Positions 6,948 to 50,079 of a stretch of DNA of 64,000 nucleotides are shown here, piece by piece. This stretch comes from Tubulanus polymorphus (taxonomy: Eukaryota > Animalia > Nemertea). Below the pieces are notes generated by a model. That model ran no database searches, was not told where the DNA came from, and worked only from the letters and a program-made list of their open reading frames with translations. The DNA lies in NCBI RefSeq assembly GCF_964204645.1, contig NC_134034.1, positions 7,576,962-7,640,961 on the forward strand. The letters are read 5' to 3'. A program made the translations under genes and the position numbers. How positions within the stretch are numbered: the stretch's first letter is position 1; every line of letters starts with the position of its first letter.

Positions 6948-9900
6948 TTAACATGTTATAATCCTGTTCATTATTTCCTTTTCTTTTGTTTCTTCTCTTT
7001 TAAATCTTAAGTATTCATCTAAATTGCAACCATACGCGACTGTATGAATTCCGTCATCTAAAATATATCTTTTATCATCAAATGGGTTTGGACTTATCTT
7101 TTCAATTTCTTCAATAAACATCTCGTGGTACTCAGATCTTAAACATCGTATCTTATGTTTTCTAACTTCTTCATTGAATATACAATTGATGTAATCTTTG
7201 AAATGAATATTCTTTTCAACAACGCTTCTGGTAATTCCTTTTAATTTCTTTGATTCATGAGTTCTAGTTTTATAACTATACATTTTAGATACTATATATT
7301 TTCTAATACCAATGAATTCAATCATTTCTTCACCACCTAATTCATCTTTAAACTTCCCGGGAACTTTTTTATTATCATTGCTAAACAATTCATGATCTTT
7401 AGGATAGTAAGCGAAATCAAAATGATGTTTTAATGTTTTTAAATCATCTGTTATATTATTAGTTTTTATCTGTAATATGTAAGAATCAAAATATAAGATT
7501 TCTATATGTGTCAAAATATAAGATTTCTATATGTTTTCCAAAATGAGGTTGTAATATGTTATAATAGAATTCATACATTAATAACTTTGATAATTCTAAA
7601 ACTGTAGCTCCAACATTAATTGGTTTATTAAATTTCATTGATGTTCTTCTCATTTTAACAGCGGCTAAATTTTCATCAAATATTTTGTTACCCATAAATT
7701 TAGGATATGTTTGTAAATGTCTAATTCTTTTACCATTACTAACTAACTCAATATCATTTCTATTTCTAATATTTTCACAAGTCTTACCATAGAATGCATT
7801 ATTCATTAACTTTTTAAATCTTTTTCGAAATCAGTTGTAGCTTTAGTTCTCTGTTTTGTGTTAAAATCTATATATTTTTCTAACCATTTAGATTGACTGA
7901 ATGAAATATATCTATGTACTTTTTTTAGGATCATACCTTGTTTTAGATATAACTTTAACATTCTATAATGTACTACATAATTATATTTATCTTCTTGAGT
8001 TACCATTAACTTTTCTGTATGAATATGATTTTCGGGTTTAATTCTTTTTAGTAATTTGATAATTCTTCATGTGTAACAGTTTTATGTTCTGGACAGTATG
8101 CTAGATTTCTAGATTTAAATTTTTTATCATCAGGATATTCCAAGTCTACAACAAAGAAGTAACCAGTATCTGAATCATCTTCAATATCTAGAATTCTATT
8201 CTTCCAATCAAATTTATCATTATTTTCATGTTGTAAAACTTCACTTATTTCAAATACTCCATCAGGTTGTGGTTCCATCATTGCCCATCCATAAAGATTA
8301 TTTGCATCTATATATAATAACTTATATCCAGGATTGTCATTTACATTGAAATATCTATCGCCTAATACACCTGAAACTCCTCCTCTTACAGATTTTTCAA
8401 ATAATAATAATTGATCTATATTTGTCAACAAATCCATTTTTATATCTGTAAATTTTCAACCACAATCCCAAGTTAATCCTGGTGAAGAATAACAATGGCA
8501 AGGATCCATATTAAAATATTTTAGATTTACATCTCTAAACCTTTCAAATATATCCGATAATAATAATACATCTGATTTTAAATATAAATCTACTAAGTGT
8601 CCATGATTTGTTATTTTATAATGATTCCAAATATTCAATGTTCTATTATAGACTTCATATTTAACATATTCGTTTTTTAATTCATCATAGAATTGTTCTA
8701 TAATAATTCAGTTATATTGAAATCATTATGTGATTTATAAAATGAATATGGAATTGCGCCTTTATATCTCATTAATTGAAAATCATCATTATTTGGGTAG
8801 TGTTGTTTTAATATTTTTAATTCATCATCAACTAATGATTTTGATAAATTATCTAATGAACTACCTAAAAATCTATATGAATCTATAAATCTTAGGCACC
8901 CAAATTGGAACAAAGTTAATTTTCTTAGCTTGTAAGTTACAATTCTCATGCGCTGCGCATCTAAACTTTCCATTTAAATGATCATGGTCTCTTACTTTTT
9001 TATCTTTTAGATTAAATATCTTTTCACAATAATGACATTTATCTGCAAACTCAAATGCTTCTTTATCTTCTTCTGTCATTATAATTTCTATATTTGCATC
9101 TAATAGTTTACTAAATTTTATTTCATACTCAATCAATAAGTCACAAAAATGATTGATAACATTTTCATTTCTATAATGATAATATTCACTTTTAATTAGT
9201 TCTGGATAATCAGATTTTATATATAACCAAAAGCTGCAGCTGATTGATGAATCTTTTTAATAGTATTTGTTATTAGGGGATCTGAATAATCAATTATATC
9301 ATTTTCATCAGAATTTAATTTCTTTCTTTTATGATATATTTCTTTTCTATCTTCGATCAGTTAATTCTTTATTTATTGATTCAAAATCTCCATATATTAC
9401 AAATGGTACTTTATTCTTGTAATCATATTTTTTGAATTCTAATACTTTATCCTTTTCATTTGGTAAAACTATTTTACAATAATCATGATTTTCACATAAT
9501 TGTTTATGATTTAATAATGCACTTTCGGTTCTGAATTTAGTTATACATTCTCTACATAGATATATTTTATTATCAAAATCATTTTCTGATTTGAAAAATA
9601 AATCAATACGTTTTATCCACATATAATGATTCTCATAATATAGTATATCTATAACATCATTTGATTCATAATCTTTTGCTAAGTATAAAGGTTCTAATGT
9701 ATAATGTTTAATATTATTACCTTTTGTTTTTGGCAATTTGACTAAATAAAACACATTTATCTTTATATTATTTTATTTGATTTAGTTAACTTATTATATT
9801 TTGTGTTATAAACATGTAAAGTCATAAATATTATTTCATCAAATATTAAACCTGATCCTTCAAAATATTTCTTTTCTATTTTACTTTTTATTTCATTAAA

Positions 9901-10542
9901 ACATTTATCTAATTTATCATCTATATGTTGTTTAGATATAATATGTTGTGAATGGGAATTTATATTATATATTGGTTTATCTTCAGATTTTATAAACTTT
10001 ACTTTAGAAGATATGCTAATTTTAGGGTATTCAACATCTGTAATTATTTTTATAATATTTTTTATATTTTCTAAATGTTTTTTATTTTCTTCTAATGTTT
10101 TTCCTTTATGAAATTTAAACTCAATAGCTGCTGGACCAATATCACTTTTAAATGCTTCGGTTATCTCTATTTCCTTTTTATTATCTAATGAATTAATATA
10201 TTTTCTTGCATCTTCCATGTATGGCCTTTTATTGTTTAATTTATTTTTTATTCTTTTAATTGTCTTCTGTTTCTTATCATTATCTTTATCAAAATAATCC
10301 TCACCTAAAATATCATTATTCTTATTTCTAATTTGACTTTTAGATTTTAAATGTTCTTTATAATATCTTTTGTATGTTTATTTTTCATTCTTTAATTCAT
10401 CTAATTTAGTTTCTAATATATCATCTTTATATTTTAGCTTTAATTTATTTTCTAAGTGAGATTTAGTTTTATTGTGCCTTGCTTTTTGAGATTTATGTAT
10501 ATTTATTTTACATGTTGGACAGTAGTATTTATTTGCTTCCAT
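6948..10542 (-). pseudogene. Protein-primed family B DNA polymerase, fragmented (copy A), intein-free allele
   Basis: ORF fragments with YIDANNLYG, NNAFYGKT, YFD(T)DS and EndoVII-like RDHDHLNG..AHENCN. Confidence 0.9.
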
Positions 10543-21961: not shown

Positions 21962-22023
21962 GATATTTGCCACGCACCCAATAGTTGTTGCGAAGTTAAT
22001 TAAGGATAATAACAGAAATAATT

Positions 22024-24531
22024 ATGAGTATAAAGTTGTTGTATTTTAAGAGATCGTTAGGAAATCGAGGAGTTATGATTTATATTGTTGTTTTAGGAAC
22101 CATGGTTCGGAGTATAGTTTATATCGTTATGATTTGGTCGTGGATAGGACCAATGGCTGCATGGGATGCAGAGCTACGGATGGGGGCTGGAGTAGTGTTC
22201 CAGCCAGTTGACGAGATAAATGTAGCAGCAACAAAATGGGAACATAGTGTTATGATTCCTTTAGTAGATGTTTCCCGGTTTTCGATGACAATTCCTAATA
22301 TGACGTGTGGAATGCCCAATGCCGAATGCCGACAAATAGAGAAAATGTTTCGCCTAATGCGTTTGCGTAAAATCCGAGCTGATCAAAAATTTAACAGTTC
22401 CAGGCGTATGATTGAATCATTATTACCTGTTGAAATTCCGAGTACAAGAAGAGAAGGCCGTATGAAACGAACACCACTATCATTCATCGGAGATGTCGCC
22501 AGTTTGATTTTTGGGGTCGCCACTACTGAGCAGTTACAAATAGTGGAAAGACATATGAATAAGTTTGATGCATTACACAAATTAGATCATAAAGCTATTG
22601 TCCAGTTACAAGAACGGTTAACTAGCTTTGCCAACGTAACAGATTCTAGATTTAAGTTAGTTAAGTCTCTAGTACGACAAAACAGAGATTATATGTCAAA
22701 ACTTTCGGAATTCGTTGTAAATAATACTATGAATCAGGCTCGTTTACAGGCAAGGGTACATGCACTATCATACGTAGTGCGGTATTCCATTAATTATGGG
22801 GATGTTATTGAGGCTATCAGCAGCCACATGGCCGCGTGGTTGCGCTCCACTAACGTTTTACTATCAAATAGACTACCTGTAGAGTTAATTCCGGTAACAA
22901 GTCTCCAGGAAATCTTATCAAAAATTCGCGTTACATTGAAGAATTTTTACCCCATGTTTGAGCTGGCACATCAAACCCCGAGTTATTATTATTCGCACGC
23001 GCGAACGTTTACTGTCAGGACTCGTGAATATATAGTGGTTCATATGCAGATCCCAATACAAGCAAAAAATACGCATTTTCGTTTGTATAATATATTATCT
23101 TTTCACCTTCCGGTTAATGCAACCGCTACGGTGTATACAAAAATAATTAACCTCCCACGCTTCTTTGGCGTTAGTAAGAATTTGCAAACTTACGTGTTGA
23201 TTGATGAAGCCACTTATTCGCTTTGCCAAGGACGTTATATACAGAATTGTGCAGATGGATTACCTATCTATACTCAAACACAAAAATCATGCGCGTCTGC
23301 ACTTTTCTTTGATAACCCTAAGGATCTAATTGGGCAGTGTGATCTGACATATACTTCCGTGGCGCCTCTGTCTCAGGCGGTCCTGTTGACAACCAATAAA
23401 TATTTGATATCTATTCACGACAAGCATGATGATTGGATTTCCCAATGTGGACTGGATCCACCAATTAGGGTTCCGGTCTGTAATTTTTGTGTTGTCACCT
23501 TGCAATGTCATTGTGGGTTGAATTCAAAATACTTTACGCTTTCGCCGACTTTAACAAATTGTGAAAAAGGTCATGATAGAATAACTCGATTATATCCCGT
23601 TAACATACCGGCGGCATTGCTTTTGGGTAAAGAGGATGATATTGATAATATGCAAACAGAGGTATTATATTCTAAAATTCCGCGTATCACACTGCCTGAT
23701 TTTAATATAGAGGGACATGAATGGGAAAATGTGATACGGGCTGAAAACGCTAAGGAAGCTGATTTTAAAAAATTGGCGCAGGCTATAGGCCGTGACAAGA
23801 TAGCGTATACAAGTAGGTCCGATTATTTGCGATCAGAAATTAGGGGGACACATAATTCTTTGAAAATCGGTGGTTATATTCTGATTTCGTTAGTAATTGT
23901 AACAATAATAGTATCGGCGGTTTTATGCAAACGATATAGGGCATGGGCGGCGGCAGGGACCGCTTTAACAATGGTTAAAAGTGTAGAGGCAGGGAATTTG
24001 GACATAGTTCACGAACAGTTAAATATTGATTTGTCTGCAATAGAAAAGGTATCAAATACTTTGTTGGATTGGGAAGCTATAGTAGAATGGGGTGTAGTGG
24101 GTATGGTCGTATACTCGACACTGCGATATTTCTTTACTGATGGGTGGCGGTTTATGAGTAGCCGTCGGTGGCAAGTATCACTTGCACTGTGTTCTTCTCC
24201 TAGGCTATCAGCGGAGATCTTAGCTGAGCTATATAATAATGATGGTGCGTCGGCTGTTTTACATTTGGGTTTTGTATCTCCCCATTTATGGGAGGAAGTC
24301 AGATCTATTCAAAATTTGGCGGTTATTCAGTTAAAAACATACGGTCCATTAGTTATTATCACTGTTAAATATAGCGAGGATATCACTTGTGCAAAAAGTT
24401 TGATTAAAAAAATTTACGCCAGTCGGCTTTTTAATAAGCCACTGAATCGATTGTGTAATGGTGAATTTTCTACACACTTTTGGATGGTGCATCGTCGTGA
24501 TGCAGTATTGTTGAATGAGGACCTCCCATAA
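22024..24531 (+). CDS. env: Envelope glycoprotein, class I fusion (F-like)
   Basis: Signal-like hydrophobic N-terminus, RMKR furin-type site then fusion peptide TPLSFIGDVASLIFGVAT, heptad region, Cys-rich ectodomain, TM YILISLVIVTIIVSAVLC. Confidence 0.88.
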   Translation: MSIKLLYFKRSLGNRGVMIYIVVLGTMVRSIVYIVMIWSWIGPMAAWDAELRMGAGVVFQPVDEINVAATKWEHSVMIPLVDVSRFSMTIPNMTCGMPNAECRQIEKMFRLMRLRKIRADQKFNSSRRMIESLLPVEIPSTRREGRMKRTPLSFIGDVASLIFGVATTEQLQIVERHMNKFDALHKLDHKAIVQLQERLTSFANVTDSRFKLVKSLVRQNRDYMSKLSEFVVNNTMNQARLQARVHALSYVVRYSINYGDVIEAISSHMAAWLRSTNVLLSNRLPVELIPVTSLQEILSKIRVTLKNFYPMFELAHQTPSYYYSHARTFTVRTREYIVVHMQIPIQAKNTHFRLYNILSFHLPVNATATVYTKIINLPRFFGVSKNLQTYVLIDEATYSLCQGRYIQNCADGLPIYTQTQKSCASALFFDNPKDLIGQCDLTYTSVAPLSQAVLLTTNKYLISIHDKHDDWISQCGLDPPIRVPVCNFCVVTLQCHCGLNSKYFTLSPTLTNCEKGHDRITRLYPVNIPAALLLGKEDDIDNMQTEVLYSKIPRITLPDFNIEGHEWENVIRAENAKEADFKKLAQAIGRDKIAYTSRSDYLRSEIRGTHNSLKIGGYILISLVIVTIIVSAVLCKRYRAWAAAGTALTMVKSVEAGNLDIVHEQLNIDLSAIEKVSNTLLDWEAIVEWGVVGMVVYSTLRYFFTDGWRFMSSRRWQVSLALCSSPRLSAEILAELYNNDGASAVLHLGFVSPHLWEEVRSIQNLAVIQLKTYGPLVIITVKYSEDITCAKSLIKKIYASRLFNKPLNRLCNGEFSTHFWMVHRRDAVLLNEDLP

Positions 24532-25115
24532 ATACATGGCAGCTGGCCTGTCTAATTGCAACGACTCTCAGCCACAAATAGCAGTACACGTTATCCCTGC
24601 CTAGACTACGGATAAATGTGCTTTCTGAGGCAATAGGCGGGGACTAGCAGCTGACATCTCAACAATACGAATGTACGCGTACGGTATATTCATTTTTAGG
24701 TAAATTTCGGATCGACTTTGTAATAAGCGCTTATTAAAATTATTGTGAAATTAATCATGAAATTATTGTTGAACATGTCTGTTGCCAACATGTGCTGGGC
24801 ACACGATAATCAGCTAAATGATGTATCTGACATCTGTATTAATTTACGTCGTTGATTGGAGTCGGGACAGGTTGGGCGGACCATCTAAATATCGGTTAAG
24901 ATCGCAGCTGTGAGTTGATGAAAATAGGAGATACACGGGTTTGCGATAATAAGTCTAGACATAGAGAATGCGCTACTTACAACGGTTTTTGTTGTTGTTG
25001 TTAACGTATCGAGAACAAGGAATTTAAATATTATTATAAGGGTGATATTTATTTATTGTAATGGATATATAAAATAGAAAAAAATCGATGGGTATAATAT
25101 ATGATGTTTTTCTTT

Positions 25116-26315
25116 TTATTCTTCTTGCTCTGAAATAGTAAGGGGAATATTGTGTTTTATTGTGAGTTAAAATTATTTGTGCATGAATTTTAAATGAAAA
25201 CTATGGGGTTAACACTATATTGGATCGGAATGAAATTTGTGTGTATTATAATTAGATAATGTAGTATGTATAATTAAGAAGTGTTCTTACCAGATTCTGA
25301 TGAACTATAGCGGGGCGAAAAAGGAGAAAAAAGGGAAGCCAGCGAGGGAAGGTGACTGGAGAAACTATCGGAACTGTCCAAAGAAGGACTTGGCGGGGGT
25401 ATAGGATAGACAGGGACGCCAAGGGACGTTGGGGGATTAAGTGATAAATCAAGGAAAGGGACAGGACTGGATGAGGGGGTATTGGGATTAGAAGAGTCAC
25501 TACTGATGATTATAGGGTTGAGGGAGCATGCTGGATCGTCAGCAAAGGGCAGTAGACCTAAACCAGATGGTACAGGATCTACACCCCGACTTGCTGACGG
25601 GTTGGAAGGTCGGGAATAGGGATGGGGGCGAGTGGAGTGGCTGCTGGACTTCCCCTTTCCCTTTCCCTTTCCCTTATTCGTCCGAGGGTCAGATGAAGGT
25701 CCAGGAGTTTGAGCCCTGGGGGCACGTCCAGGGTCAGATGAGGCTGAAAGTTTGATTTAATTGACAATTGTGTATTTATTATAATTTGAAAGATTATAAT
25801 TATGTTAAAAATTGTCAATATTATTATTAAGCGAACTGTTACGAATTGGCAAGTGAAAAAAAAAAAAAAAAAAAAAAAATCAGTAAATGAATAAATTAAT
25901 ATTAGTTAAGTTCTATACCTGGATCCGATGCACTACTGTCATTGATTGCCCTCAGTATAATTGCCAGTAACCGATATCGGTTACCTAAATTGAAAATAAT
26001 ATTGTTACCCAATGGTTAAGAAAAAAAAAATTAAACTTGTAAAATTGATATCAGTAAATAATGAATGATGTTAGTACATAGTTTATTGGTCTTACCAGGC
26101 TGGGCGGCAATGAAACCGTACAGCATATTCAGTACCAAATAGGCTAAAATAAAAGAAAAAAAAAAAAGAAAAAAGAAGAGGAATAAAATAAATGATGGAT
26201 TCAAGATACATATTGTATTGAAAACAGAGTTAGGAATAAAGGTATAGAGATAGGACTTTAGGACTTAAAAAGAAGAGATATAGTGTTGCTTACCGAAGAA
26301 GTCAACGGAATTCAT
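25116..26315 (-). CDS. Predicted five-exon antisense accessory gene (~200 aa, Ser/Pro-rich, KG repeat)
   Basis: Exons 26315-26294, 26143-26096, 25984-25919, 25743-25291, 25129-25116; all introns GT-AG and phase 1; no internal stop. Confidence 0.7.
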
Positions 26316-26628
26316 AGTAAATCCTTTAAGTGTAAAATTTGCGTGTTCGTTGGATGAAGAATTGTGTGTTATACTGACTAAAAGATTTTTGGGGTCGTAC
26401 TTCTTGGTTATGAAGTATGTATATTTTTAGCAGAGATTGTGTTGAGGAAAATGACATTATGTTTTATTGCTTTACGGTTGAGTTCAAGAGAAAATGAATG
26501 TTGTATTCGTTTATTGTGTACTGATGATGTTTGGTATTGGCAGCTGATACCTGGCGTTTTAACATCAATTTTAGGGGTCTTCTGAAAATTCGGACTGCAT
26601 TAATTTTGTCGTTTGAGGGCAAACGACC

Positions 26629-26640
26629 TGGGCCGGGGGA
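26629..26640 (+). promoter_or_regulatory. Polypurine tract
   Basis: gggccggggga immediately before the 3' LTR. Confidence 0.65.
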
Positions 26641-26642
26641 TA

Positions 26643-27452
26643 TATTATGGAGACTTTGATGAAATAATTAATGAAAATATTAGCTTCCAAGTAGATCTAT
26701 GAAATTATATCAACAAGCCTTTAGGAAACACATTAGTAGGTTTCAGTTGTCAGCATTTAAACAAAATCAACAAGTAATATACAGAAGCGGGAGTTCATGG
26801 CCAGCAGTGCAGTTACCAGACAACCTGCCTGGATATGTACGTCGTACATAAACATAAATAGAAATTATATAAATAAACAAGTCTGGAAGTGACGTATGTG
26901 TCAACGTAGGAAGAGCTAATATGGTCCGGTTATGCGCTCCGTTGAGTGCGGAAATATATTTATAGAAAATTATGACGTGTGCAGATACGTCAGCGCCCAT
27001 ACATGGATGGAAGGAATGTTGTGACGTATAAATACGTCACAAGCAATGAATTCCAAGCCATGTGTGGAAGAGGACCTGCACACGTTAAAGTTATATAAAT
27101 AGGGAGGAATGTTGTGACGTATAAATACATCACAAGCAATGAATTCCAAGCCATGTATAGAAGAGCTCCGGCACCGGTTATACAAGAGAAAGTTAGATAA
27201 ATAAGGGGGTTTTTAGTAAGCACGGGAGTTGAGCTCCGGGGAAGAATCTGTAAACAACGAGTTAAAAGATAATAAACGAATATATAATGTAAGAAGTAGT
27301 TAAGTTATATACGGGAGCCAAAGTCAAGAACTGGGAAGAAAGACCTGGCCTAAAGACAGATCCTGCACGACATCGCTGGTAGAGAAACGCAACCATAACA
27401 GTGGTAGAGATCACAACAGAAGCGGACAACTTCAAAATTCAACGCCACAACA
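26643..27452 (+). repeat. 3' LTR
   Basis: Direct repeat of the 5' LTR, followed by TSD ATAC. Confidence 0.96.
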
Positions 27453-28648
27453 ATACTACCTAGCGTGACTCCACTAGTTAGACCGACTTATTCCAAGATG
27501 AGGCGTTCCGTTGATTTTGGCTATAAGTTTTCGTTCAGAGATAACTGCTGAGCCACTTGGGCATATCATTGATACTGTTTCCTAATAGCCTGTTTAGTTA
27601 GTAATGGCTGATGTTGTGCCTTATCAAATGCTTTGTCGAAATCCACCGATGAACAGGATTCTAAGACAGCAGAAAACCCGTTATAGCTGCTTTGTTCTTC
27701 AACTGTTATATTACCATTTAAACTTATTATATAATCTAATGTATTTTTTAATTTATTAATTTCTTTTATATTAGATTTTATTTTTTCTTTATAACTTTTT
27801 ATATTTAATTTTGAACTCATTGCCGGTTAATACACTGGAACTTAAACCTAAAGCTCCAATTGAGATAGCTAAAGGTGTTAATGGTGAGAATAATGCTAGA
27901 AATGTTATTACAGAACTAATTGTAACTGAACTACTAATAATAAAATAATATATAATTTTACATTTTAAATTATTTTTTCTTTTTAACTTTTAAATCATTT
28001 TCAAATTATAATATTTGTTTTTCCAAATATAATTTTAATTTAGTTTTATTTATATCATGAGGAATAATATCAATATTATCAACTTTATCATCCATTTATT
28101 TAGAAAAGATATTACTAGTTAGTAAATTTATAAGCAACAAATATTACAATAACTGTTCCTCCTAAAATCCAAATTATTTCATATTTTTGTTTTTCACTAC
28201 TTGGTGTATAATAATCTGATAATTTAGGTTTATATAGATGTAATTTATCTCTTTATTTGTTACTGCGTTATATAAACTCATAGCTTCATCAACTGATTGA
28301 AAATCTCTGTGTAATTTTCTGATTATATAATTCTTTATTAAGATAATCCATATAATTTTGTCTCTTTTCTCTATATTCTTCTGCAGCTTTATTATATTTT
28401 TCTAATGCTAAGTTATGTCTTCTTTGTTCTGCTAATGAACTATTTTTATCAATATGCTTATCGATATTATAATTCCATTTGATGAATTAACGAACAAAAA
28501 GAAACAAAGAGAGCTAGATGAAGTGGATGATGTGGAATAATATAGAACTTCATTTAAATGAGAAAAATGAAATGGAAGAACCTAAACAATTAAATGATAA
28601 TGAAGAAGCCAATAGTGATTTCGAGTATGGTGATATTGATTTTCTTTT

Positions 28649-31600
28649 TTAATGGCCATAAGGTAATGTTTTTATTCCATCACCCGAAATATATCTTTTA
28701 TCATCGAACGGATTTAAACTAGTTTTATCAACTTCATTAATGTACATCTCGTGATCTTCTGATCTTAAACAATTCATTTTATGTTTCATTACAATTGAGT
28801 AATATAAACACTTTATATAATCTTGAAATTCTATGTGTTTATCAACCACATGTTTTGTTATTCCTTTTAACTTTATAGCTTCATGATCTTTTGTTCTATA
28901 ACTATACATTTTACTTCTCATCCCAACAAATTCAATCATTTCATCGCCCCCTAATTCATCTTTAAATTTACCAGGAATTTTTTTATTATCATTGCTAAAT
29001 AGTTCATGATCTTTTGGATAATTGCTAAAGTCAAAATGATGTTTTAATGTTTTTAAATCTTTTGTTATGTCATTTGTCTTGATTTTTAGTATGTAACTGT
29101 CAGTATTCTTTAGGAATAATGAAAATCCACAATTAAATATACCAACTTCAGTTGTTAAAACATTAACATATTCTATAGGATTGTATATTTCAAATAAAAC
29201 TTTAACTTCTTCTGTTAGTTCATTTTCTACATGCGTTAATTGAAATACATTTGGTTTTTCCTTTCTAATATTAACTAACATATTAAATCCTAATGAATTG
29301 CATAATATATTTAATCCTGATATAGCAACTTTTCCTTTTTGTGTCAAAGATATAGTTTTCTGTTTTGTATAGTTTTTTGAACCATCTGCAGCATAGAATC
29401 CAATGAAGAACCATTTTCTTAAATTATCTTTTGCATTTAATACATAATCTGGTACTATCTTTTCTTTAGTTGAAGCATTACTTTTAACTATTGCATGAAT
29501 ATAGAATTCATCATTATATTTAATTGCAAAATCTTATTTACATGTATTCTATAAACTGCTGATGATTTCATAACATGTATGATTTTAAATGTTTTATTTG
29601 GATAAACTTCTTTACAGTATTTCTTTATTCTTTCTAATAATTTCAAATCTTGATTGCATAAACACCAACAATATTGAGTTTGATTAACATACTTATACAC
29701 ACCTGCTGAACCATCACGCATAAAAAATCATTTAATAAAATATTCTTTTTCTTCTAATGTTTCAGGTTCTGTGTTATAAATATTATAAATTATTTCATCA
29801 AATGACATATGATCCATTCTTTGGAAAAATATTTTATGTAATAATTCATCTCCAATTTTTATATCAGTTGGTTTTATTTCATCACTATTTTGTTTAATAT
29901 AACTATGATCTTCAGTAACATCAACGAATCCTAGTTTGGTTCTAACTCTATAGATTTTCTTATTTGTTTTATGCCTAATAATATTCTTTAATTTCTTCCA
30001 TCCATTTCTTGTCCAAGCATCCATTAATCCCTTTATTTGTATTAATTCTTTTTCACCATATGAAATATAAAGTTCATTTTGTTTTGGAATTATTTCTGAA
30101 ATTCTTCTTATCAATATTTGGTTATTGTATTTTGATTATATTGGGGTATCAGCTGTTACAGAATCAAAATATAATATTTCAATATGTTTTTCCCCAAAAA
30201 GTGGTTGTAAAACATTATAATAAAAATCATACATTAATAATTTTGATATTCCTAAAACAGTTGAACCAATGAATATAGGTTTATTAAATTTCATTGACGT
30301 TCTTTTTAAATTTACCGCTGTTTAATAATCTTCAAATCTTTTATTTCCTAAATGTCTAAGACTTGATTGTAAATGTCTCAATCGTTCAGAATTATTTACT
30401 AATTCAATATCATTTCTATTTCTAATATTTTCACATGTTTTTCCATAAAAAGTATTATTCATTAATTTAAAGAAATCTTCTTCAAAATCTGTTTTTGATA
30501 CGGTCCTCTGTTGAGTATCAAAATCTATATATTTCTCTAACCACTTCGATTGATTAAATTCAATATATCTATGTACTTTCTTTAATTTCATTCCTTGTTT
30601 TAGATAAAATTTAAACATTCTATAATGAACAATATAATTGTATTTATTATTTTGAGTAAGTATTAATTTTTCTGTAAAAACATGATCTTTCGGTTTTTAT
30701 TTTATTCTGGTATTCACTTAAATAACTATCATCTACGGCTAAATGTCCTGGGCAATATGGTAAGTTTCTTGTTTTAAACTTAATGTTATCAGTATATTCT
30801 AAATCAACTACAAAGAAATAACCAATTGGTGCTTCATCTTCTAAACTCATAATTGCGCTTTCCCAATTAGTTTTATCATCATTTTCAACTTCTGTTAATA
30901 TAAAATTTTTATATGGTTGGTTGCATCATTTCCCAACCATATAAATTATTAGCGTCAATATATAATAATTTATATTCATCATTTGCTTTAAAATACCTAT
31001 CTCCCATAACACCACTAATTCCACCTCTAATTGATTTTTTAAATAATAAAACCATGTCTGGTTCTTTTAATAAATCTAATTCTACATTTGTATATTTTAA
31101 ACCACATTGCCAGGTTAAACCAGGACTTGAATAACAATAACAGGGATCAACATTAAAATGATTCAAATTAAATTCTCTAAATTTTTCAAATATATCAGCC
31201 AATATCATAAAATCTGATTTTAAATATAAATCTACTAATTCACCATGATTTTTTATCTTAAAATGATTCCAAATATTTAATGTTCTATTAAACACTTCAT
31301 CTTTCACATACTCCTCTTTTAATTGATCATAAAATTGTTCTTTTAATAATTCTGTTACATAAAAATCATCATGTGTTTTATAAAATGAATAAGGAATTGC
31401 ACCTTTAAATCTCAATAATTTAAACTCTTCATTTGGATAATAATGTCGAGTTATTATAAAATCAACTAAACTTTTTGCTAAATTATCTAATGAACTTGCT
31501 AAAAATCTATAAGAATCTAAAAATCTAATGCAACCAAATTGAAATTAAATTTGATTTTCAGATGTCTTAGCTAATAGTTCAAAATCATATTTTCTTACAT

Positions 31601-33711
31601 TTGCGCCATTCATAGCATTATATTCTTCTATTTCTTGATTAATTGCGCCCAATTTTCCTGATAATTGTTTTATAAATAGATGGGTGTCATAGCCTGATAA
31701 ATTATGAAATAATATTGGTACGAAATTAACTTTCTTAGCTTGTAAATTGCAATCTTCATGAGCAGCTACACGATATTTTGAATTTAAATGATCATGATCT
31801 CTAACTTTTTTTTATCAAATGAATGAAAACGTTTTTCACAGTAACAACAATGAGTTGCATAATTAAAATCAATTTCATCTTCTTTTGTCATAACTATTCT
31901 TTTATTTTTGTTTGATAATTTTGCAAAATCATTTTCTATTTCAATTATTTTATTATAAAATTCAATTACTACATATTCACCTCTAAAAGAAATATATTGA
32001 CTTTCATATGATTCAAACTAATTTGATTTTATATAAATTCCATAAGCAGCAGCTCTTTGATGAACTTTTTTAATTGTATTTATAATTGGTGGTCTTGAAT
32101 TATGTCTTCATTTAATTCATTTCGTTTGTCCATTGATTTTAGAAATTGCTTTTTGTTATATATTTCTTTTCTATCTTGATCAGTAAATTCTTTATTCAAC
32201 GTTTCAAAATCTCCAAATCCAAATAAATTACAAATGGTACTATTTATTTAAATTTTCGATTAATAAATTTCAACTTACAACCTTTTTTGTTGGCATTATT
32301 ATTTTGCAAAAATCTTTATTATCACGTAATTCTTTATGTTTTAATAATGCATTCTCAGTCATAGATTTAGATAAACATTTTCTACATAGATAAATTTTAT
32401 CATGATGATCACTTTCTGTTCTAAAGAAAAAATCATTTGTTTTAACCACATATAATGTTCATTTTTATCTTTTTTTGTAATATAACAAATCTACAACATT
32501 TTCGTAATCATCATAATATTCTGTTAAATATAAAGCTTCTAATGTATAATCTTATAATGTATAATTTTCACCTTTTGTCTCTGGTAATTGCATTTATTCG
32601 AAAACATTAATTTTTAAATTATTAACTTTTTCTATTTTAGGAATCATGTTTATAGTTACTGGATATTGATCAATTTTATATAATGTTTCATATTTCCGGT
32701 AATCTCTTATTCTAAAACTATGCGTAATATCTTCTGTTGGTGTAAACAACTAATAATTGACCATAGAAAACATTTATTATCTTCATTTTGAGCATGTATT
32801 ACTGCTTTTGTTGAAAATGGTAATTTAATATAAGATGATGCTTTTATATCCTTTTCTGTTGTAAAGTTTGAATCATTTTTAAACATTTTATTACTTTTTG
32901 ATGTTTTATTTCTCTTTGTATTATAAATATTTAAATCTAAAAATATAATTTCATTCAATGTTAAACCAGAACCCTCAAAATATCTTTCCTCAATATGACG
33001 TTTAAATTCATTAAATACTTTTTCTAACTTCTCTTTTATTTGTGTTTTTGAAATTATTTCTTCAGAGTGTGTTTGAATATTGTAATCCATTTTTACTTCT
33101 GATTTGATAAAACTTACTTTTCGAGAAATACTATGGATATTCAACATCTGTTACAAAATCTATTATTTTTTCCATGATTTCAATAAATTTACTATAGTCT
33201 TCTATTGTTGCTCCTTTAAAAAATCTAAATATAATAGCTGCAGGCCCAATTTTACTACGTAATGTTTCTAAAATTTCAATTGTATCTTTTATTTCTAGTG
33301 AATCAATATAATTTCTAACATTTTCCATATAAGGTTTATTTGAAATAGATTTAGTTTTTGAAACTGGTTTTTTTACTTGTTCAAGTTTATCATCAAAATA
33401 TTCTGTTCCTAAAATATTTTTATTCAAATTTTGTTTGTGTTTGTGTAATTCGAGATGTCTTTTATAATTCCTTTTTGCTATAAATTCATTACAAACATTA
33501 CATTTAATTTGATCCTTTTTCATATTTTCTAATTGTTCTTTTCTTTCATTGGAATTTTCTGGTGTCTCAAAATCTATAACATTTTTTGTATAATTTGCAG
33601 TTTCTTCATGTCGTGCTTTATGAGATTTATCAATGTATTTTTTGCAATATGTACAATAATATTGATTTTCATTAACATCAATTTTTCTGTATGTTGTTCA
33701 CTCTCTCCCAT
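28649..33711 (-). pseudogene. pPolB with intein, many stops and frameshifts
   Basis: YIDANNLYG, LMNNTFYGKT, YFD-[insert]-TDSY, PGKFKDE motifs. Confidence 0.9.
29105..30162 (-). mobile_element. Intein with LAGLIDADG homing endonuclease (~350 codons), degraded
   Basis: Starts SVTADTPI after YFD; block B VDVTEDHS; FFMRDGS and FFIGFYAADGS; ends FLKN followed by TDS. Confidence 0.92.
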
Positions 33712-34413: not shown

Positions 34414-34785
34414 AGTAATAGGGGTTTAGTTGTTCTAGATCAAAGGTCGAACGGTCGAGAAATTTTCCAAATGTGAAAATAACAATAATTTCAACTTGAA
34501 TTAGTCGCGCACACTCCTAATTCAAGTAGAAATTATTATTATTTCACATTTGGAAAATTTCTCAACCATTCAACCTTTAACCTAGAACAACAAAACCCCT
34601 ATTACTCTTAAAATAATCATATACATGAATAACATGTAAATTGACGGATTATTCAATATAAAAGTGTGAGCTCTTATAGAATAGATAGATAGATATATTT
34701 TAAACCATATTTCAATATTTATATTTGTATGAGTTAGATTTTTAAACATTAAAAGTGTTAGTAAAGTGTGATTGAAATAATTCAT
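34414..34785. repeat. Left TIR with 193-bp terminal hairpin (34414-34606)
   Basis: Self-complementary arms; inverted match to 53244-53542. Confidence 0.92.
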
Positions 34786-34838
34786 ATTTAAATCATTGAA
34801 CTTCTAAAATCAATTTAAAAAAAAAATTTAGTATTAAA

Positions 34839-37800
34839 ATGGAAGCAAGTACTACTGTTCACCATGTAATATCAATATAGATAAATCCCAAAAATCAAGA
34901 CACAATAAAACTAAAACACATTTAGAGAATAAATTGAAATTAGAATATGAAGATGATATATTAGAAACTAAATTAGATGAATTAAAGAATGAAAAAGAAA
35001 CATACAAATGTGATACATGTAATCAATCATTCAGTGATAAAAGATATTATAAAGAACATTTAAAATCTAAAAGTCATATTAGAAATAAGGATAATGATAT
35101 TTTAGGTGAAGATTATTTTGATAAAGATAATGATAAGAAACAGAAGACAATTAAAAGTATAAACAAGAAAATTAATTTTAGAAAATTATTTGACGCCTGG
35201 GAAAAAAATGTAGAATTTCTGGGCTAAGCTAATGTGGAATTGCAAATTTGAAATCGAAGTTTTAAGAAATTTGGGGAATGATGAGATTTGGCGATTTGGT
35301 AGATGATACAGGTCTTCGACTCTAGTAGTGGTTTAAATTTTTTTATTGAAAATTCTCAATAATTGATCGCGAACTTGCGACCGACTTCATTTACTTATGC
35401 CTCTAAGCTGGTCTGCAACTTCATAGCCTCCATGGATGAAGAAAGAGCTCCTCTGATGTCTGCTTCATCATGACTTCGATCATATCGTGTGGCCTAGCCA
35501 GCCGGCCCGGTCCCCGGGCCCGGGCCACGGGTTTGGCTGTCACTCGATATCCTAGAGTCTTGAGTCTGGGTGGGTTGAAGTAGACATTGTCATTTAAAAT
35601 AACATGCTTATGTTGTTCTGTATGAATTACCCGTGTGTCATGTATGTTGTATTAATTTATTTTAAAATTTGTATTTATTGAATTTGGGAATTTTATCCCG
35701 GAATTTCAATGTAATAAGGATCAATAAAGAATTGAATTGAATTGTCACCTAATACACATGCCATCAGAGGACACGGAGCCGTATAAGACAGCTATGCTAT
35801 TATAAATTGCTAATCTCACGAAACTTGCATACTCCTAATATCAAACATATTTTCACAAACGATTGAATATTGAAATTATATGTTTACACATTTTCATATT
35901 GACCGCTTGTAGCCGCTGATGAAATTCACGCCGGCCCTACACACATCGTAGATAGCTTCGTCATTCCACCGGCATGCCCACGTCAGGGTCTGACTTTTAT
36001 ATCAGACTTCCGCATCGTGTATACATCCGCCATTTAACCGAATAATCCGATTTACTTATCATTTCTATTTATGCCTGCCGCTTCTGATACAATCATACAT
36101 CCTTTACTATTACAATACGTCTTCTAATGATATTCAATGCAATATAACATTTCGACGTTCAAATATAGGTCATTATATAATCACAGGAAGCCATTCTACA
36201 TCTATGTCAATAATATTTTGCCAGATAGCTTGTTTGTGTACACATAAACCTGTGACGTTTTGCACATCGATTTACGGCTGTCGTTTGTAAAATGACGCTG
36301 AATGGTAAGCATTGTTTAGGTTTCATAATGGTAACGTTTTATAAGGCGTCAAAAAATAAATTTAACAATAAAAGACCATACATGGAAGATGTAAGAAAAT
36401 ATAGTAATTTATTGGATAATAAAAAAGATATAGAGATAACCGAAGCATTTAAAAGTGATATTGGCCCAGCAGCTATCGAGTTTAAATTTCATAAAGGAAA
36501 AACGTTAGAAGAAAATAAAAAACATTTAGAAAATATGAAAGAAATAATGAAAATAATAACTGATGTTGAATATCCTAAAATAAGTATTTCATCAAAATTT
36601 AAATTCATAAAATCTGAAGATAAACCAATATATAATATAAATTCTCATTCACAACATATTATATCTAAACAACATATAGATGATAAATTAGATAAATGTT
36701 ATAATGAAGTAAAAACTAAAATAGAAGAGAAATATTTTGAAGGATCTGGTTTAATATTTGATGAAATAATATTTATGACTTTACATGTTTATAACACAAA
36801 ATATAATAAGTTAACTAAATCAAAACCCATAGATGAAAATAATGTATCATATTATAAAGAACCAGATATTGAAGCATCGAGTTATATTAAACTACCATTT
36901 AAAACTAATGCTGTTATAAATGTACAAAATGAAGATGATAAATGTTTTCTATGGGCTATAATTAGTTGCTTACATCCTGCAACTGATAATATTTGTAGAT
37001 TAACTCATTATAAACCATTTGAAAATAATTATAAGATAGATAAGTATCCTGTTAGAATTAAAAATATCCAAAAAATAGAAAGAGATAATAATATAAAGAT
37101 AAATGTATTTTATTTAATCAAATTACCAAATACAAAAGGTAACAATATAAAACATTATACATTAGACCCTTTATATCTATCAAAAGATTATGATTCAAAT
37201 GGTGTTATAGATATATTATATTATGAGAATCATTATATGTGGATTAAAAGAATTGATTCATTTTTTAAATCAGAAAATTATTTTGATAATAAAATATATC
37301 TATGTAGAAAATGTTTACATAAATTCAGAACTGAAAGTGCATTATTAAATCATAAACAATTATGTGAAAATCATGATTATTGTAAATTAGTTTTACCAAA
37401 TGAAAAGGATAAAATATTAGAATTCAAAAAATATGATTACAAAAATAAAGTACCATTTGTAATATATGGAGATTTCGAATCATTAAATAAAGAATTAACT
37501 GATCAAGATAGAAAAGAAATATATTATAAAAGAAAGAAATTAAATTCTAATGAAAATGATTTTTCAGATGAACCACCAATAACAAATACTATTAAAAAGA
37601 TTCATCAATCAGCTGCAGCTTTCGGGTTATATATTAAATCTGATTATCCAGAACTAATTAAAAGTGAATATTATCATTACAGAAATGAAAATGTTATCAA
37701 TCATTTTTGTGACTTATTTATTGAATATGAAATAAGATTTAGTAAATTATTGAATAAAAATATAGAAATTATAATGACAGAAGAAGATAAAGAAGAATTT

Positions 37801-39939
37801 GCGTTTGCAGATAAAAAAGTAAGAGACCATGATCATTTGAACGGAAAGTACTTACAAGCTAAGAAAATTAATTTTGTACCAGTTATATTTCATAATCTAT
37901 CAGGATATGATGCACATTTATTTATCAAACAGTTATGTCATAAAATAGAAGAAATCAATAATGAAATAGACATATTAAATTCAAATAGATCAAAAGATAA
38001 AATACCAACTTATAAATTTAGAATGTTAGCTAAAACATCTGAGAATTATATATCATTCCAATTTGGTTGCCTAAGATTTATAGATTCATATAGATTTTTA
38101 AATAGTTCATTAGATAACTTATCAAAATCATTAGTTGATGATGAATTAAAAATATTAAAGCAACACTACCCAAATATTGATGATTTTCAATTAATGAGAT
38201 ATAAAGGCGCAATTCCATATTCATTTTATAAATCACATAATGATTTTAACATAACTGAATTATTAAAAGAACAATTCTATGATGAATTAAAAAATGAATA
38301 TGTTAAAGATGAAGTATATAATAGAACATTGAATATTTGGAATCATTTTAGAATGAAAAATCATGGGCAATTAGTAGATTTATATCTAAAATCAGATGTA
38401 TTATTATTAACCGATATATTCGAAAGGTTTAGAGATGTAAACCTAAAATATTTCAATATTGATCCTTGTCATTGTTATTCATCACCAGGTTTAACATGGG
38501 ATTGTGGATTAAAATTTACAGATATAAAAATGGATTTGTTAACAAATATAGATCAATTATTATTATTTGAAAAATCTATAAGAGGAGGTGTTTCAGGTGT
38601 ATTAGGTGATAGATATTTCAATGTAAATGATAACCCCGGATATAAGTTATTATACATAGATGCAAATAATTTGTATGGTTGGGCAATGATGGAACCACAA
38701 CCTTATGGAGTATTTGAAATTACTGAAGTTTTACAGTATGAAAATAATGATAAATTTGATTGGAAGAAAAGAATTCTAGATATTGCAGATGATTCAGAGA
38801 CTGGTTACTTTTTTGTTGTAGATTTAGAATATCCTGAACATATTAAATCTAAATCTAGAAATCTAGCATACTGTCCAGAACATAAAACTGTAACTCATGA
38901 AGAATTATCAAATTATCAAAAAAGAATTAAACCCGAAAATCATATTCATACAGAAAAGTTAATGGTAACTCAAGAAGATAAATATAATTATGTAGTACAT
39001 TATAGAATGTTAAAGTTTTATCTAAAACAAGGAATGATCCTAAAAGAAGTACATAGTTATATTTCATTCAGTCAATCTAAGTGGTTAGAAAAATATATAG
39101 ATTTTAACACCAAACAGAGAACTGAAGCTAAAACTGATTTCGAGAAAGATTTCTTCAAGTTAATGAATAATGCATTCTATGGTAAGACTTGTGAAAATAT
39201 TAGAAATAGAAATGATATTGAGTTAGTTAGTAATGGTAAAAGGATAAGGCATTTACAATCATATCCTAAGTTTTTAGGTAACAGAATATTTGATGAAAAT
39301 TTAGCTGCAGTTAAAATGAGAAGAAAATCTATGAAATTTAATAAACCAATTTATGTTGGTGCTTCAGTTTTAGAATTATCAAAATTACTAATGTATGAAT
39401 TCTATTATAATGTATTACAACCACTTTTTGGAGAAAAACATATAGAAATCTTATATTTTGATACTGACAGTTACATATTAAAGATAAAAACTAATAACAT
39501 AACTGATGATTTAAAAACATTAAAACATCAGTTTGATTTTAGTAACTATCCTAAAGATCATGAATTGTTTAGCAATGATAATAAAAAAGTTCCAGGGAAG
39601 TTTAAGGATGAATTAGGTGGTGAAGAAATGATTGAATTCATTGGTATTAGATCTAAAATGTATTCATATAAAACTAAAGAACATGAAGCTAAAAAGTTAA
39701 AAGGAATAACCAAAAGTGTAGTAGAAAAGAATATTCATTTCAAAGATTACATCAATTGTATATTCAATGAAGAAGTTAGAAAACATAAGATGAAATGTTT
39801 AAGATCTGAAGATCATGAAATGTTTATTGAAGAAATTGAAAAGATTAGTCTAAACCCATTTGATGATAAAAGATATATTTTAGATGATGGAATTCATACA
39901 GTTGCTTATGGTAATTTAGATGAATACTTAAAATTTTAA
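34839..39939 (+). pseudogene. pPolB (C2H2 fingers, OTU-like DDKCFLW..HY region, exonuclease, EndoVII-like insert, polymerase), interrupted by an insertion at ~35170-36351
   Basis: Open from 36352 to 39939 with YGDFES, FHNLSGYDAH, YIDANNLYG, NNAFYGKT and YFDTDS; N-terminus matches the copy A start. Confidence 0.95.
35191..36351. mobile_element. Unclassified ~1.16-kb insertion in PolB
   Basis: Flanks contiguous in copy A; short inverted ends tgacgcct/aggcgtca; contains a LINE-tail-like aataaagaattgaattgaattg; no clear TSD. Confidence 0.65.
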
Positions 39940-40437: not shown

Positions 40438-40451
40438 AATATGTAAAATAA

Positions 40452-41204: not shown

Positions 41205-41220
41205 ATTTTTCACTATATAA

Positions 41221-45494: not shown

Positions 45495-46742
45495 ATGAGT
45501 GGGAGTTATATCAATCCTTCTAAGAATCATAGAATATCTAATGCTATTAAAGCAGAAAGATCACATCATATAATTACTCATTACCCTTCTAATATTAATC
45601 CTGATGAAACTTTATATGTTAGAATTCCGAGATTAACACAAAATACTTTTTTTGTTCCAAATAGTATTTATTTATCAGCCGATATAAAAGTAACCGGTAA
45701 TAATAATAATTATGTTGTTGATAATGTTGGAAGATATTTGATTAAAAAATTAACAATAAAGATTGGTCCGGAAACAGTTTTCTCATTAGATGATTATAAT
45801 TTATTTATGCATTATAAAGATTTATGGTTAACTAAAGAAAATAGAAATAATATGATATTTCAAGGCATCCAATCAGAAAACCAAAATAAATTAAGATCAG
45901 AAGCACATAATGCAATATTAACCAATGCTATAGATAAATTGATAAAAAGTATTTATGGAAGCAAATATAAAATTCCATTAGACTTTGAATTGATAAATAA
46001 TAATGCGCCTTTATATAAATACGCAATTCAAGAAGATGTTATATTTGAGATAACATTTGCTCCTGTTAATGAAATTGTAAAATCTAGCGTTAATAAAGAT
46101 ATGGGTTATAAATTATCAAATATATGTTTAGAATATGATACAGTAACTGATGAAAATATTTCAAGTATAATTCAAACTCAATACAATCAAGGATTTTCAT
46201 TATTATATGATTATATTGATAAATTTAAAACTGTAACTATTAATGCAAATGATGAAATAATTAATGAGAATATTAACTTCCCAAGAAGATCTATTAAAGG
46301 TATATTAATATTTTTTACCATTGCAACATATACTAATGGTGCAATAAATGTTGATAATTATTATAATCCTGAAATAACAAAAGTAGAAATAACTATCGAA
46401 GGAATAGCAAATAAAATATTTTGTCAAGGAATGAGAATGATTGATCAATGGCCAGAAATTAGAAAACATTTTATTTATGAAAAAGTGAAATCATCTGAAA
46501 ATTGTAATATTAATCAAATTGATTATTATACCGGTAATAAATATGCATTATGGTTAGATTTTAGAACAACAGAGGATAATTCATTACATGGTTCTGGAAA
46601 AAAACTACAGAACACTAAAGATGGAATACAATTATTCATGACAAAGAATAAAGGAATCAAAAATTTTAAAATGCACATTTATATTATATCTGACGCACAA
46701 TTAAATATTGTAAATCCTCAATTGAATAGTGTTATGTATTAA
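45495..46742 (+). CDS. Major capsid protein (double jelly-roll)
   Basis: Intact 415-aa beta-rich ORF, NVGRYLIKKLTIKIG motif, Polinton context. Confidence 0.78.
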   Translation: MSGSYINPSKNHRISNAIKAERSHHIITHYPSNINPDETLYVRIPRLTQNTFFVPNSIYLSADIKVTGNNNNYVVDNVGRYLIKKLTIKIGPETVFSLDDYNLFMHYKDLWLTKENRNNMIFQGIQSENQNKLRSEAHNAILTNAIDKLIKSIYGSKYKIPLDFELINNNAPLYKYAIQEDVIFEITFAPVNEIVKSSVNKDMGYKLSNICLEYDTVTDENISSIIQTQYNQGFSLLYDYIDKFKTVTINANDEIINENINFPRRSIKGILIFFTIATYTNGAINVDNYYNPEITKVEITIEGIANKIFCQGMRMIDQWPEIRKHFIYEKVKSSENCNINQIDYYTGNKYALWLDFRTTEDNSLHGSGKKLQNTKDGIQLFMTKNKGIKNFKMHIYIISDAQLNIVNPQLNSVMY

Positions 46743-48357: not shown

Positions 48358-48900
48358 TTATTTATTCATATATTCATCATGTAATTCAGTAGGTATAATT
48401 TGATTTTCTTCCAATGATTGTTGCATAGATTTTTTATCTTTGTTATAAAATAAAACAAGAAATCTTATATTCTCCCTAAAGTCTTTAACAATTGAATTAT
48501 ATTTTTGATTTAAAACCCATGTTGTTATCCCAAAATGTCTCCCAGAGAAAGCTAAATAACATAACTCACTTTCTCTCACTTTTGAATCATGTAAATTTGC
48601 GCAATCATCTATAATGAATAATGTATTTGATCCTTTATAAATATCAATTGCTATTTTAATACAATTATCTAAATTTTCTTTTACTGTTTTAGGATCTAAT
48701 ATAATAAACTTTTTTATCTTAACTATATCTCTGTTATATGTTTTATTCATTTCATAAGTAGGACAAAATAATATTATATTATCAAAATGATTCTTATAAA
48801 TAGTTTCTAACAAATCTAATATGAAATGTGTTTTACCACAGTTTGTTACCCCAGTAACTAACATATTATGCGGTTCAAATATAAATAAATCTTTAGTCAT
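48358..48900 (-). CDS. A32/FtsK-like packaging ATPase (premature stop near C-terminus)
   Basis: GVTNCGKT, LFIIDD, GRH, VLNQ motifs. Confidence 0.9.
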   Translation of the reverse strand: MTKDLFIFEPHNMLVTGVTNCGKTHFILDLLETIYKNHFDNIILFCPTYEMNKTYNRDIVKIKKFIILDPKTVKENLDNCIKIAIDIYKGSNTLFIIDDCANLHDSKVRESELCYLAFSGRHFGITTWVLNQKYNSIVKDFRENIRFLVLFYNKDKKSMQQSLEENQIIPTELHDEYMNK

Positions 48901-49970
48901 TTATTCTTGTAATTTTACTAGATAAAATCCATTCATTAAATTTATCATCATATCCTTTATATTTCACCAAAGAATACTTTTTCCTTTAAGAGTTTTTGTT
49001 TTCAATACTTTTTCTATGTTGTATTCTATTTCATCTGGATTTGGTACAAGTGATAATTCTTGTTCATAGAAATAACCTAATATTTCTTCATCTTTTAGAT
49101 CTTCTAATTTATAAACAAATGGTTTAGTTAATATTATCTTTTTAATCTTGAATATTTCTTCTGTAAAATTTGGGGTATAACCTTTATAAAATGTTTTTCG
49201 ATATTTAGATATTCTAACGTGTTGTCCAATTTTAAATTTAGGTTCTCCGAAATCATGTGTAACAAATGCTCCATATAAATTATTCCAAACAATTTCTGAA
49301 TTATCTTCTTTTCTAGCTTGTATAGGTTTCATATTTATAGAACTATGTTTAGAATTATTATAACTAAATCATCTAACACATCGATGTATTTATATGTTTC
49401 ATTAGCAGTAAAATATTTCCACATTCTAGTTTTCAATGTTTTATTAAATCTTTCTATAATAGATGCTTTTTTATCTGAGTGTGTTGAAAAATAATCTACA
49501 TCGTTATCAGATAATAGTTTTTTAAAATGTTTGTTATAAAATTCTTTACCTTCATCAAATTGTATCTTATCTGGAATAGCTTCTTTAAATATTGATTTAA
49601 AAGCATTTGTTACTTCTATAACAGTTTTATTTTTGATTGGAATTGACCATGCGTATCTACTGAATATGTCTATAACATTTAATATCCAGAAATATCCTTT
49701 GTTGTGTTCTTCTAAGTTCTTCATGTCAATTAAATCTGCTTGCCATTGTTGATCGATATATGAAACCATAACTTTTCTTATTAAATAAGTTTTATCCATT
49801 TTCTTGTGGATTTGATATGTTGGTTGATTTTGTAACCATGATTTCAATTCACTATATTTTATATTTTCATTATCAGATTTAATTTTATCCCATAATTCTG
49901 AAACGTTAGAATATGATACTTCACTTTCTGGGTTATAATATAACTCTCTTAAATATTGTTCTTTTTTCAT
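48893..49970 (-). pseudogene. rve integrase with chromodomain, frameshifted
   Basis: WQADL, IQFDEGKEF and IIERFNKT catalytic D-D-E. Confidence 0.92.
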
Positions 49971-50079
49971 CTTATTTTAATCCATTAATAATAATTTAGA
50001 TTTAGTTTCAATGACTTTATGATTTGACTTATTTTCTGGTATAATAGGTTTATTATCATCGGAATCATTATTGTTATAA

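Follow-up and report, generated by a model that had tools for sequence, protein, structure and literature searches.

A decayed motif C intein in a Polinton DNA polymerase and its relatives in other Polintons

The pol-c site of PolB enzymes and the 351-residue intein that occupies it in Mimivirus were described by Ogata et al. (2005, PMC549080), and 67 viral DNA polymerase inteins appear in Green et al. (2018, PMC5784728). In the available portion of the latter survey, eukaryotic viral inteins are listed only for NCLDV families and unclassified viruses, and inteins are stated to be absent from metazoan genomes, in line with the remark in a preliminary description of the present locus that they are essentially unreported from animal nuclear genes. 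Fungal and Anaeramoeba inteins also reside in eukaryotic nuclear DNA (Green et al. 2018; Gallot-Lavallee et al. 2023, PMC10710043); as far as the available text of these papers goes, they sit in cellular genes, whereas the carrier here is an endogenous virus-like element of a likely animal.

Nucleases are known from Polinton polymerases. HNH and VSR nucleases fused to the Polinton polymerase, pPolB, were reported by Jeong et al. (2023, 10.1101/2023.08.22.554363), and one sentence in the available text of Krupovic et al. (2024, PMC11071308) holds that nuclease insertions in Polinton pPolBs 'result from intein invasions'. The word intein is absent from the available main text of Jeong et al., the source behind that suggestion. 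Like the insert described here, these HNH and VSR domains place a nuclease within a Polinton polymerase, but in the accessible account they are fixed and lack Hint, whereas the insert belongs to a family of complete Hint plus LAGLIDADG inteins in motif C with filled and empty alleles. The preliminary description knew of no intein in a Polinton pPolB, and we likewise found no report of one in the literature searched; supplements, Repbase and InBase lay outside this scope and could hold an annotation. Term look-ups in the available text of PMC12220804, PMC3671162, PMC13768754 and PMC5718144 returned no Polinton intein, and the word intein is absent from PMC11131425 and PMC8502044.

Like the Mimivirus and NCLDV PolB inteins, the insert occupies a YxD|TDS site, spans ~350 residues, starts with Ser, ends with Asn before Thr+1 and carries TxxH and LAGLIDADG motifs, the Mimivirus intein being compared through its partly available published description. 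Unlike the NCLDV inteins, whose hosts are RNA-primed, Pol-delta-like enzymes, it lies in the protein-primed PolB (PF03175) of an integrating Polinton, a multicopy element of a eukaryotic nuclear genome. Our reading, to which we assign a probability of about 0.72, is that the insert represents, in decayed form, a family of motif C LAGLIDADG inteins specific to Polintons, likely an old acquisition from a giant virus, and that intact copies are predicted to splice out and to home into empty Polintons.

The insert, its carrier and the surrounding DNA

The window, the whole 64,000-nucleotide stretch of DNA that was analysed, contains three Polinton copies, A, B and C. The pPolB of copy B is interrupted on the minus strand by a 1058-bp insert at 29105-30162, which splits the YFD|TDS sequence of polymerase motif C precisely at the D-T boundary. 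The junctions read ILYFD|SVTADTPI at 30162 and GFSLFLKN|TDSYILK at 29105 (minus strand). The earlier assignment to the pol-c site is supported.

The insert (29105..30162, minus strand) reads as a decayed pol-c intein of ~352 codons with a Ser start, a block B TxxH, two LAGLIDADG motifs and a C-terminal Asn followed by a +1 Thr. Its N-terminal Hint, or splicing, region (29830..30162, approximate boundaries) opens with block A and includes block B at ~29905-29925; the first LAGLIDADG motif lies at approximately 29704..29739, the second (FFIGFYAADGS) at 29378..29410, and the C-terminal Hint blocks F and G at 29105..29175, all on the minus strand. Two LAGLIDADG motifs are thus flanked by splicing halves as in a maxi-intein, the first of them being damaged in copy B. 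The residues that define class 1 inteins (Ser/Cys1, TxxH, terminal Asn and Ser/Thr/Cys+1) occur in copy B and in 10 of 10 unbroken Polinton relatives described below, with His, Lys or Ser as the penultimate residue. As also expected of this class, the insertion has no counterpart in homologous empty alleles and its junctions are exact; the frame is broken in copy B and is kept across the insertion in the unbroken relatives.

Pfam searches of the insert's natural open stretches returned Intein_splicing at E=0.007, under the curated cut-off, LAGLIDADG_3 at E=1.2e-4, just above it (22.8 bits against 22.5), and Hom_end at E=6.5e-4. A tblastn comparison with a giant-virus intein scored 138 bits, against at most 20.8 bits for 60 codon shuffles, and comparison with the intact relative P0002 gave E=9e-121. 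Taken together with relatives at the same site and a structural model of one of them (P0258) that matches solved inteins, these results confirm the preliminary identification: judged from its sequence, the insert is a real Hint plus LAGLIDADG intein whose resemblance to known inteins goes beyond chance.

This intein is decayed. Stops fall at codon 9 and at ~codon 145, comparison with P0002 places one frameshift in the region 29533..29545 (minus strand), the first LAGLIDADG motif carries an in-frame stop and a substitution, and block F, also substituted, lacks residues that the ten unbroken relatives retain. By these defects the copy B intein is dead: its frame cannot be read through, and it can neither splice nor cut. 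Its G+C content (0.24) is not separable from that of the exteins (0.23-0.26), and there is therefore no compositional sign of a recent foreign origin.

The carrier enzyme is a Polinton pPolB, as had been proposed. The N-extein of copy B (30163..33364, minus strand) is broken by stops and frameshifts, and one piece of it matches DNA_pol_B_2 (E=2e-9); the C-extein (28655..29104, minus strand) begins TDSY. Copy B is a partial element. In copy C the pPolB (36256..39939, plus strand) is an open frame of 1227 codons with an empty site between 39462 and 39463 and an uninterrupted motif C, ILYFDTDSYILK; the flanks of the intein site in copies B and C are identical over 12 nt on the upstream side and 15 nt on the downstream side. 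This pPolB has no Pfam match of its own and was assigned through 68% identity to the copy B piece that matches PF03175. Copy C further encodes a major capsid protein (45495..46742, plus strand; weak Capsid_N match, E=0.007), an A32-type packaging ATPase (48358..48900, minus strand; E=1e-11) and a retroviral-type integrase (49335..49976, minus strand; rve, E=5.5e-10), so that pPolB, integrase, A32 ATPase, capsid and terminal inverted repeats, the hallmarks of a Polinton/Maverick, are all present.

The pPolB of copy A (7002..10257, minus strand) is broken and has no intein. Copies A and C are ~91% alike, and B and C 71-80% alike; on this low likeness the empty neighbours A and C belong to another subfamily. 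The preliminary description had presented them as empty alleles: they are indeed without the intein, but they are alleles of a different subfamily, and the copy A site has been altered: at ~7488-7506 (minus strand), 3 nt beyond the intein insertion point, 19 bp of upstream sequence are duplicated, a feature overlooked earlier.

Several features of the surrounding DNA were recorded alongside. Polinton-type ends (AGTAATAGGG...) occur as palindromes of 150-430 bp at 34414-34610, 2045-2196, 55388-55809 and 57037-57443, and the terminal repeats of copy C (34487-34786 and 53239-53542) contain half of such an end hairpin. Copy C also has a free-standing HNH-like frame at 51246-51923 (YHIDHVVP...WKNLRPL...N, recognized by eye) with no Pfam match. 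A young Gypsy element at 16453-27452, with 816-bp LTRs that are 99.8% alike, adjoins copy B; it encodes gag, a pol with a terminal chromodomain and an 843-codon env-like third frame. The CpG observed/expected ratio is ~0.5 in Polinton DNA (28000-33500 and 36000-52000) and 1.0 in Gypsy elements.

The genomic context is eukaryotic, and the intein likely lies in an animal nuclear genome, a view that derives from the env-bearing Gypsy neighbour. It is unlikely, in our estimate, that the carrier genome is instead that of a fungus, a protist or another eukaryote, in which case the intein would be in a Polinton and not in an animal genome. No host gene was found in the window, and the atlas matches of the neighbouring Gypsy Pol, with Chordata first, also include Basidiomycota, Streptophyta and Oomycota at 0.95-0.97, both of which would suit such a carrier. 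Against it, in the Gypsy env-like frame a stretch resembling a fusion peptide comes directly after a basic furin-type site, an arrangement typical of animal errantivirus and baculovirus F envelopes; no useful Pfam profile or PDB match was obtained for this frame. In addition, the relative P0259, labelled as part of a symbiont bin of the clam Ctena, may reflect carry-over of clam DNA.

Raw reads under the species label of the window (run X5, 12% of which was read) indicate how widespread the insert is. Depth per mate class was 90-128 in the N-half of the intein and 114-184 in the flanks. Exact omission of the 1058 bp was seen in 29 reads from 21 starts, and 16 more reads omit the insert with other TDS codons. 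Only 25 of the 3806 reads reach 99% likeness with copy B; by rough arithmetic this suggests on the order of a hundred related filled copies, although the sequenced individual may lack copy B. Many filled copies, and empty ones besides, are thus present under the species label. About half of the reads at the frameshift position differ from copy B, and hence the break is not family-wide. At 29116-29270 depth falls to 3-5, from ~100 in the N-half of the intein, so that the C-terminal segment of most copies must be less than 88% alike to copy B; this drop suggests a mosaic or two intein alleles. A further 62 reads enter the intein from copy-C-like flanks and may stem from the B subfamily. Loose-end reads at the copy C site were considered as proof of homing from B to C and rejected, since the B flanks are ~91% alike to C there.

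An intein family with filled and empty alleles

A search with the N-terminal half of the insert matched 127 of 788 candidate proteins. Highest in identity (46-63%) are inteins of Polinton-type pPolBs, and most others lie in PF00136 PolBs; the nearest unbroken Polinton inteins are 61-63% identical to the insert. The intact relative P0002 retrieved further family members as query, and a 50%-representative search added just three Polinton-type intein fragments. Of 33 matches picked by hand as Polinton-like, all but one have a better score with Polinton inteins than with those of 'NCLDV-type' (32 of 33). Loci from a metagenome scan (80 in all) reached no more than 48% identity and included no Polinton locus; atlas matches for the P0002 region were all below 0.9 and serve as leads only.

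Intact copies, which the preliminary description had envisaged, do exist. Ten unbroken inteins occupy the same site in other Polinton pPolBs, each with blocks A, B, C, E, F and G retained; Hint matches among the relatives scanned (PF14890) have E 2e-9 to 1e-5. Five of the ten (P0002, P0003, P0147, P0158 and P0159) lie within full-length open pPolB frames; the four of these frames that were profile-scanned match PF03175 or endonuclease VII in addition to intein and LAGLIDADG profiles. A model of the intact relative P0258 (pLDDT 73, from a 13-row alignment) shows a Hint fold that agrees with solved inteins, and it matches TliVMA (7qsu, E=3e-16), PI-PkoII (2cw7), PI-PfuI and PI-SceI over the whole length (E 3e-16 to 2e-9, TM 0.43-0.66). 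These archaeal and yeast maxi-inteins differ from P0258 in sequence (11-19% identity), host protein and site. The intein family is thus solid, and the insert is one member of it, not a single event.

As the intein parts the two motif C aspartates, PolB chemistry implies that polymerases so interrupted would need splicing, and from the open full-length frames with a split motif C we infer that the unbroken relatives splice. In the pathway that we envisage, Ser1 would attack the upstream bond, Thr+1 would receive the N-extein and the terminal Asn would free the intein; excision would rejoin both catalytic aspartates, such that a filled Polinton would replicate only when splicing works. Once free, the endonuclease would cleave the vacant YxD-TDS site in a different Polinton copy, which would be converted when repaired from a filled one. 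Donor and target could meet in one cell as members of hundreds of integrated copies or as co-replicating linear genomes.

Filled and empty alleles coexist in two protein clusters. In the cluster of P0004 (121 members, 15 listed), the members listed include a filled (P0125) and an empty (P0128) protein whose exteins are 99.7% alike; the residues flanking the site are the same in both, and this family accordingly gives no escape signal. The cluster of P0147 (136 members, 15 listed) holds at least seven filled and at least six empty proteins among the members listed. Five empties that were compared are 94-98.7% alike to the filled exteins, and the filled P0372 differs from each of them at 8-11 positions within 15 residues of the site, where 0.5-1.9 would be expected (p 3e-10 to 5e-4). 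The empties carry three site variants, with DCDS or DTDA replacing DTDS; compared with each other at the site, 7 of 10 pairs differ at p<0.05, and the remaining three pairs have one variant in common. Co-conversion from the donor could explain the differences between filled and empty alleles, whereas escape from cleavage, or recombination, would fit those among the empties. A second TDS codon form in empties was considered as escape recoding and set aside, since giant-virus flanks use the same codon form. The proteins P0377, P0375, P0378, P0379, P0381 and P0382, all empty alleles in a family that also has filled members, are full-length or long Polinton polymerases with DCDS or DTDA as motif C, forms that are unusual for PolB.

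Within the window, the duplication in copy A is the largest of 11 indels that separate A from C over 3203 aligned bases and the sole duplication among them, and it lies 2-3 nt from the intein site. By post hoc arithmetic, the chance of the 19-bp event falling within 10 nt of the site is ~0.6%, and that of any of the 11 indels doing so ~7%. The duplication resembles templated repair of a break and is a candidate break-repair scar, a suggestive single case. Together with the diverged empty sites, it forms a set of homing traces that are suggestive only.

The spread of the intein among Polinton lineages appears to combine inheritance with transfer. A 14-row extein tree recovers the same four groups as the intein tree, from which it follows that most of the history is old and vertical; among HNH-type pPolBs the two trees are largely congruent, and plain inheritance with loss also explains this congruence. 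P0003 departs from the pattern. It is a polymerase of a distant type with a VSR-like domain (recognized by eye), 30% identical to copy C over 192 residues, and its intein is 45-49% identical to that of P0002. That intein groups with those of P0002 and the window (98/91 in a 60-row ML tree, 95/60 in a rooted 41-row tree), and the branch lengths are ~3.0 changes per site for the extein and 0.7 for the intein. An AU test placing the P0003 extein with the window's group did not reject that placement (p=0.18). The branch lengths nonetheless point to a sideways transfer of the intein into a very distant polymerase type.

The same observations bear on a history in which the intein family is real but homing is over: a single entry into an ancestral Polinton polymerase, retained because splicing is obligatory, with empties that arose by precise loss or by recombination with lineages never invaded. 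The broadly congruent intein and extein trees of HNH-type pPolBs, similar in depth, are what such a history predicts, and the site-clustered differences could be a recombination tract. We nevertheless consider it improbable. Both LAGLIDADG motifs are retained in 10 of 10 unbroken inteins, although these are only ~40-76% alike between groups; no mini-intein occurs among the Polinton matches, whereas mini forms are common among the giant-virus matches; the empties vary among themselves at the site, motif C included (DCDS, DTDA); and P0003 is discordant in branch length. Homing among Polintons is probable on three lines of sequence evidence: i) filled and empty pairs, ii) divergence of the target sites, and iii) one jump to a distant polymerase type.

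Origin of the Polinton inteins and what it implies

Of 276 extracted inteins, 219 had at least 315 residues, and 151 remained at 80% identity, to which two were added by hand. The 11 Polinton inteins fall on one branch both in a FastTree of these 153 rows (support 0.83) and in an ML tree of 60 of them (85/71). A rooted mixture-model tree of 41 rows combined 36 of the 60 with five pol-b-site inteins as outgroup and contained no archaeal pol-c intein; its eight Polinton rows group together (87/57) and lie within the giant-virus-type pol-c inteins, behind nodes supported at 98/92, 95/94 and 92/98. That the Polinton inteins form one clade thus has moderate support.

Forcing the Polinton inteins outside the giant-virus inteins costs 33.6 log units, with a borderline AU p of 0.045 in the absence of archaeal rows. 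Polinton inteins are 40-45% identical to the giant-virus inteins found. Two neighbouring rows are tied to giant-virus bins through GVMAG contigs (P0181 at 100% and P0010 at 70-93% identity); the link extends to these two only, the other neighbours being classed as giant-virus-type by their PF00136 domain and their likeness. All 8 of 8 Polinton inteins have the signature G[FT]P at the C-terminal end, as do 20 of 143 others, which all belong to the adjacent giant-virus clade. Taken together, the trees and sequence likeness make a giant-virus origin of the Polinton intein clade likely. When the 18 nt that surround the site are compared with seven flanks of giant-virus type, 9-12 positions agree, which indicates that entry was probably a rare event and not routine homing.

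The likeness to giant-virus inteins noted in the preliminary description therefore holds, and transfer from a giant virus is favoured, if only at a borderline AU value. The transfer was not a single recent one into this genome, as that account might suggest, since the clade is old, Polinton-specific and largely follows the polymerase tree. We instead envisage a single entry from a giant virus, the intein then being inherited with the polymerase, repeatedly lost and re-homed, and jumping at least once to a distant polymerase type. The donor may, as was proposed, have been a co-infecting virus.

The immediate sister of the Polinton clade is not a giant virus: in the rooted tree this place is taken by two long-branched inteins whose host PolBs have a DTDG motif (P0073 and P0096, 92/92), a position that may reflect long-branch attraction. 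These are large PolBs with a related intein at the same site, one of them on a 347-kb contig, and phage-like by impression. That the donor was a large phage or prokaryote of this group, that the Polinton inteins branch as sister group of the giant-virus pol-c inteins as a whole, or that transfer ran from Polintons to giant viruses is quite improbable: the DTDG-motif inteins are sister to the Polinton clade in the FastTree, 60-row ML and rooted trees, and the AU value is only 0.045 on a tree lacking archaeal pol-c inteins, but the pair has a stem of 1.58, is ~29-32% identical to Polinton inteins (against 40-45% for giant-virus inteins) and lacks the G[FT]P signature, and one weak match (27%) among 50,697 phage records, no match among 72,556 plasmids and none in two low-sensitivity GTDB pattern scans speak against a phage or prokaryote donor. 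An IMG/VR pattern scan with P0258, likewise insensitive, also returned no relative.

Complete inteins in Polinton polymerases widen the range of the pol-c allele to include protein-primed enzymes and, probably, the nuclear DNA of animals. They suggest that in animals, which have been regarded as free of inteins, these elements travel as passengers of integrated viruses. With the likely origin set out above, the family would provide direct sequence evidence that genes have passed between giant viruses and Polintons, a point relevant to whether the Polintons of animals encounter giant viruses or live as their parasites. For tests of homing and escape, the nearly identical filled and empty alleles, with their diverged target sites, are ready substrates, and the mesophilic inteins and homing endonucleases newly described here may prove functional in animal cells.

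A bolder reading is possible, and we hold it tentatively, at somewhat short of even odds: animal genomes would harbour active, homing, self-splicing inteins, a giant-virus intein having colonised Polinton pPolB and reached several hosts and the two major polymerase types, with an ongoing arms race in which targets escape even via the catalytic motif (DCDS, DTDA) and with copy A scarred by the endonuclease. If true, this would amount to a natural gene drive among endogenous viruses of animal germlines, and to a trace of unseen giant-virus co-infection in Polinton hosts.

Close relatives of the pol-c inteins were also observed outside polymerases. Five type II topoisomerases (P0045, P0048, P0055, P0058 and P0154) carry such inteins at a DxD|TDG site, and in the trees these are nested among the PolB inteins.
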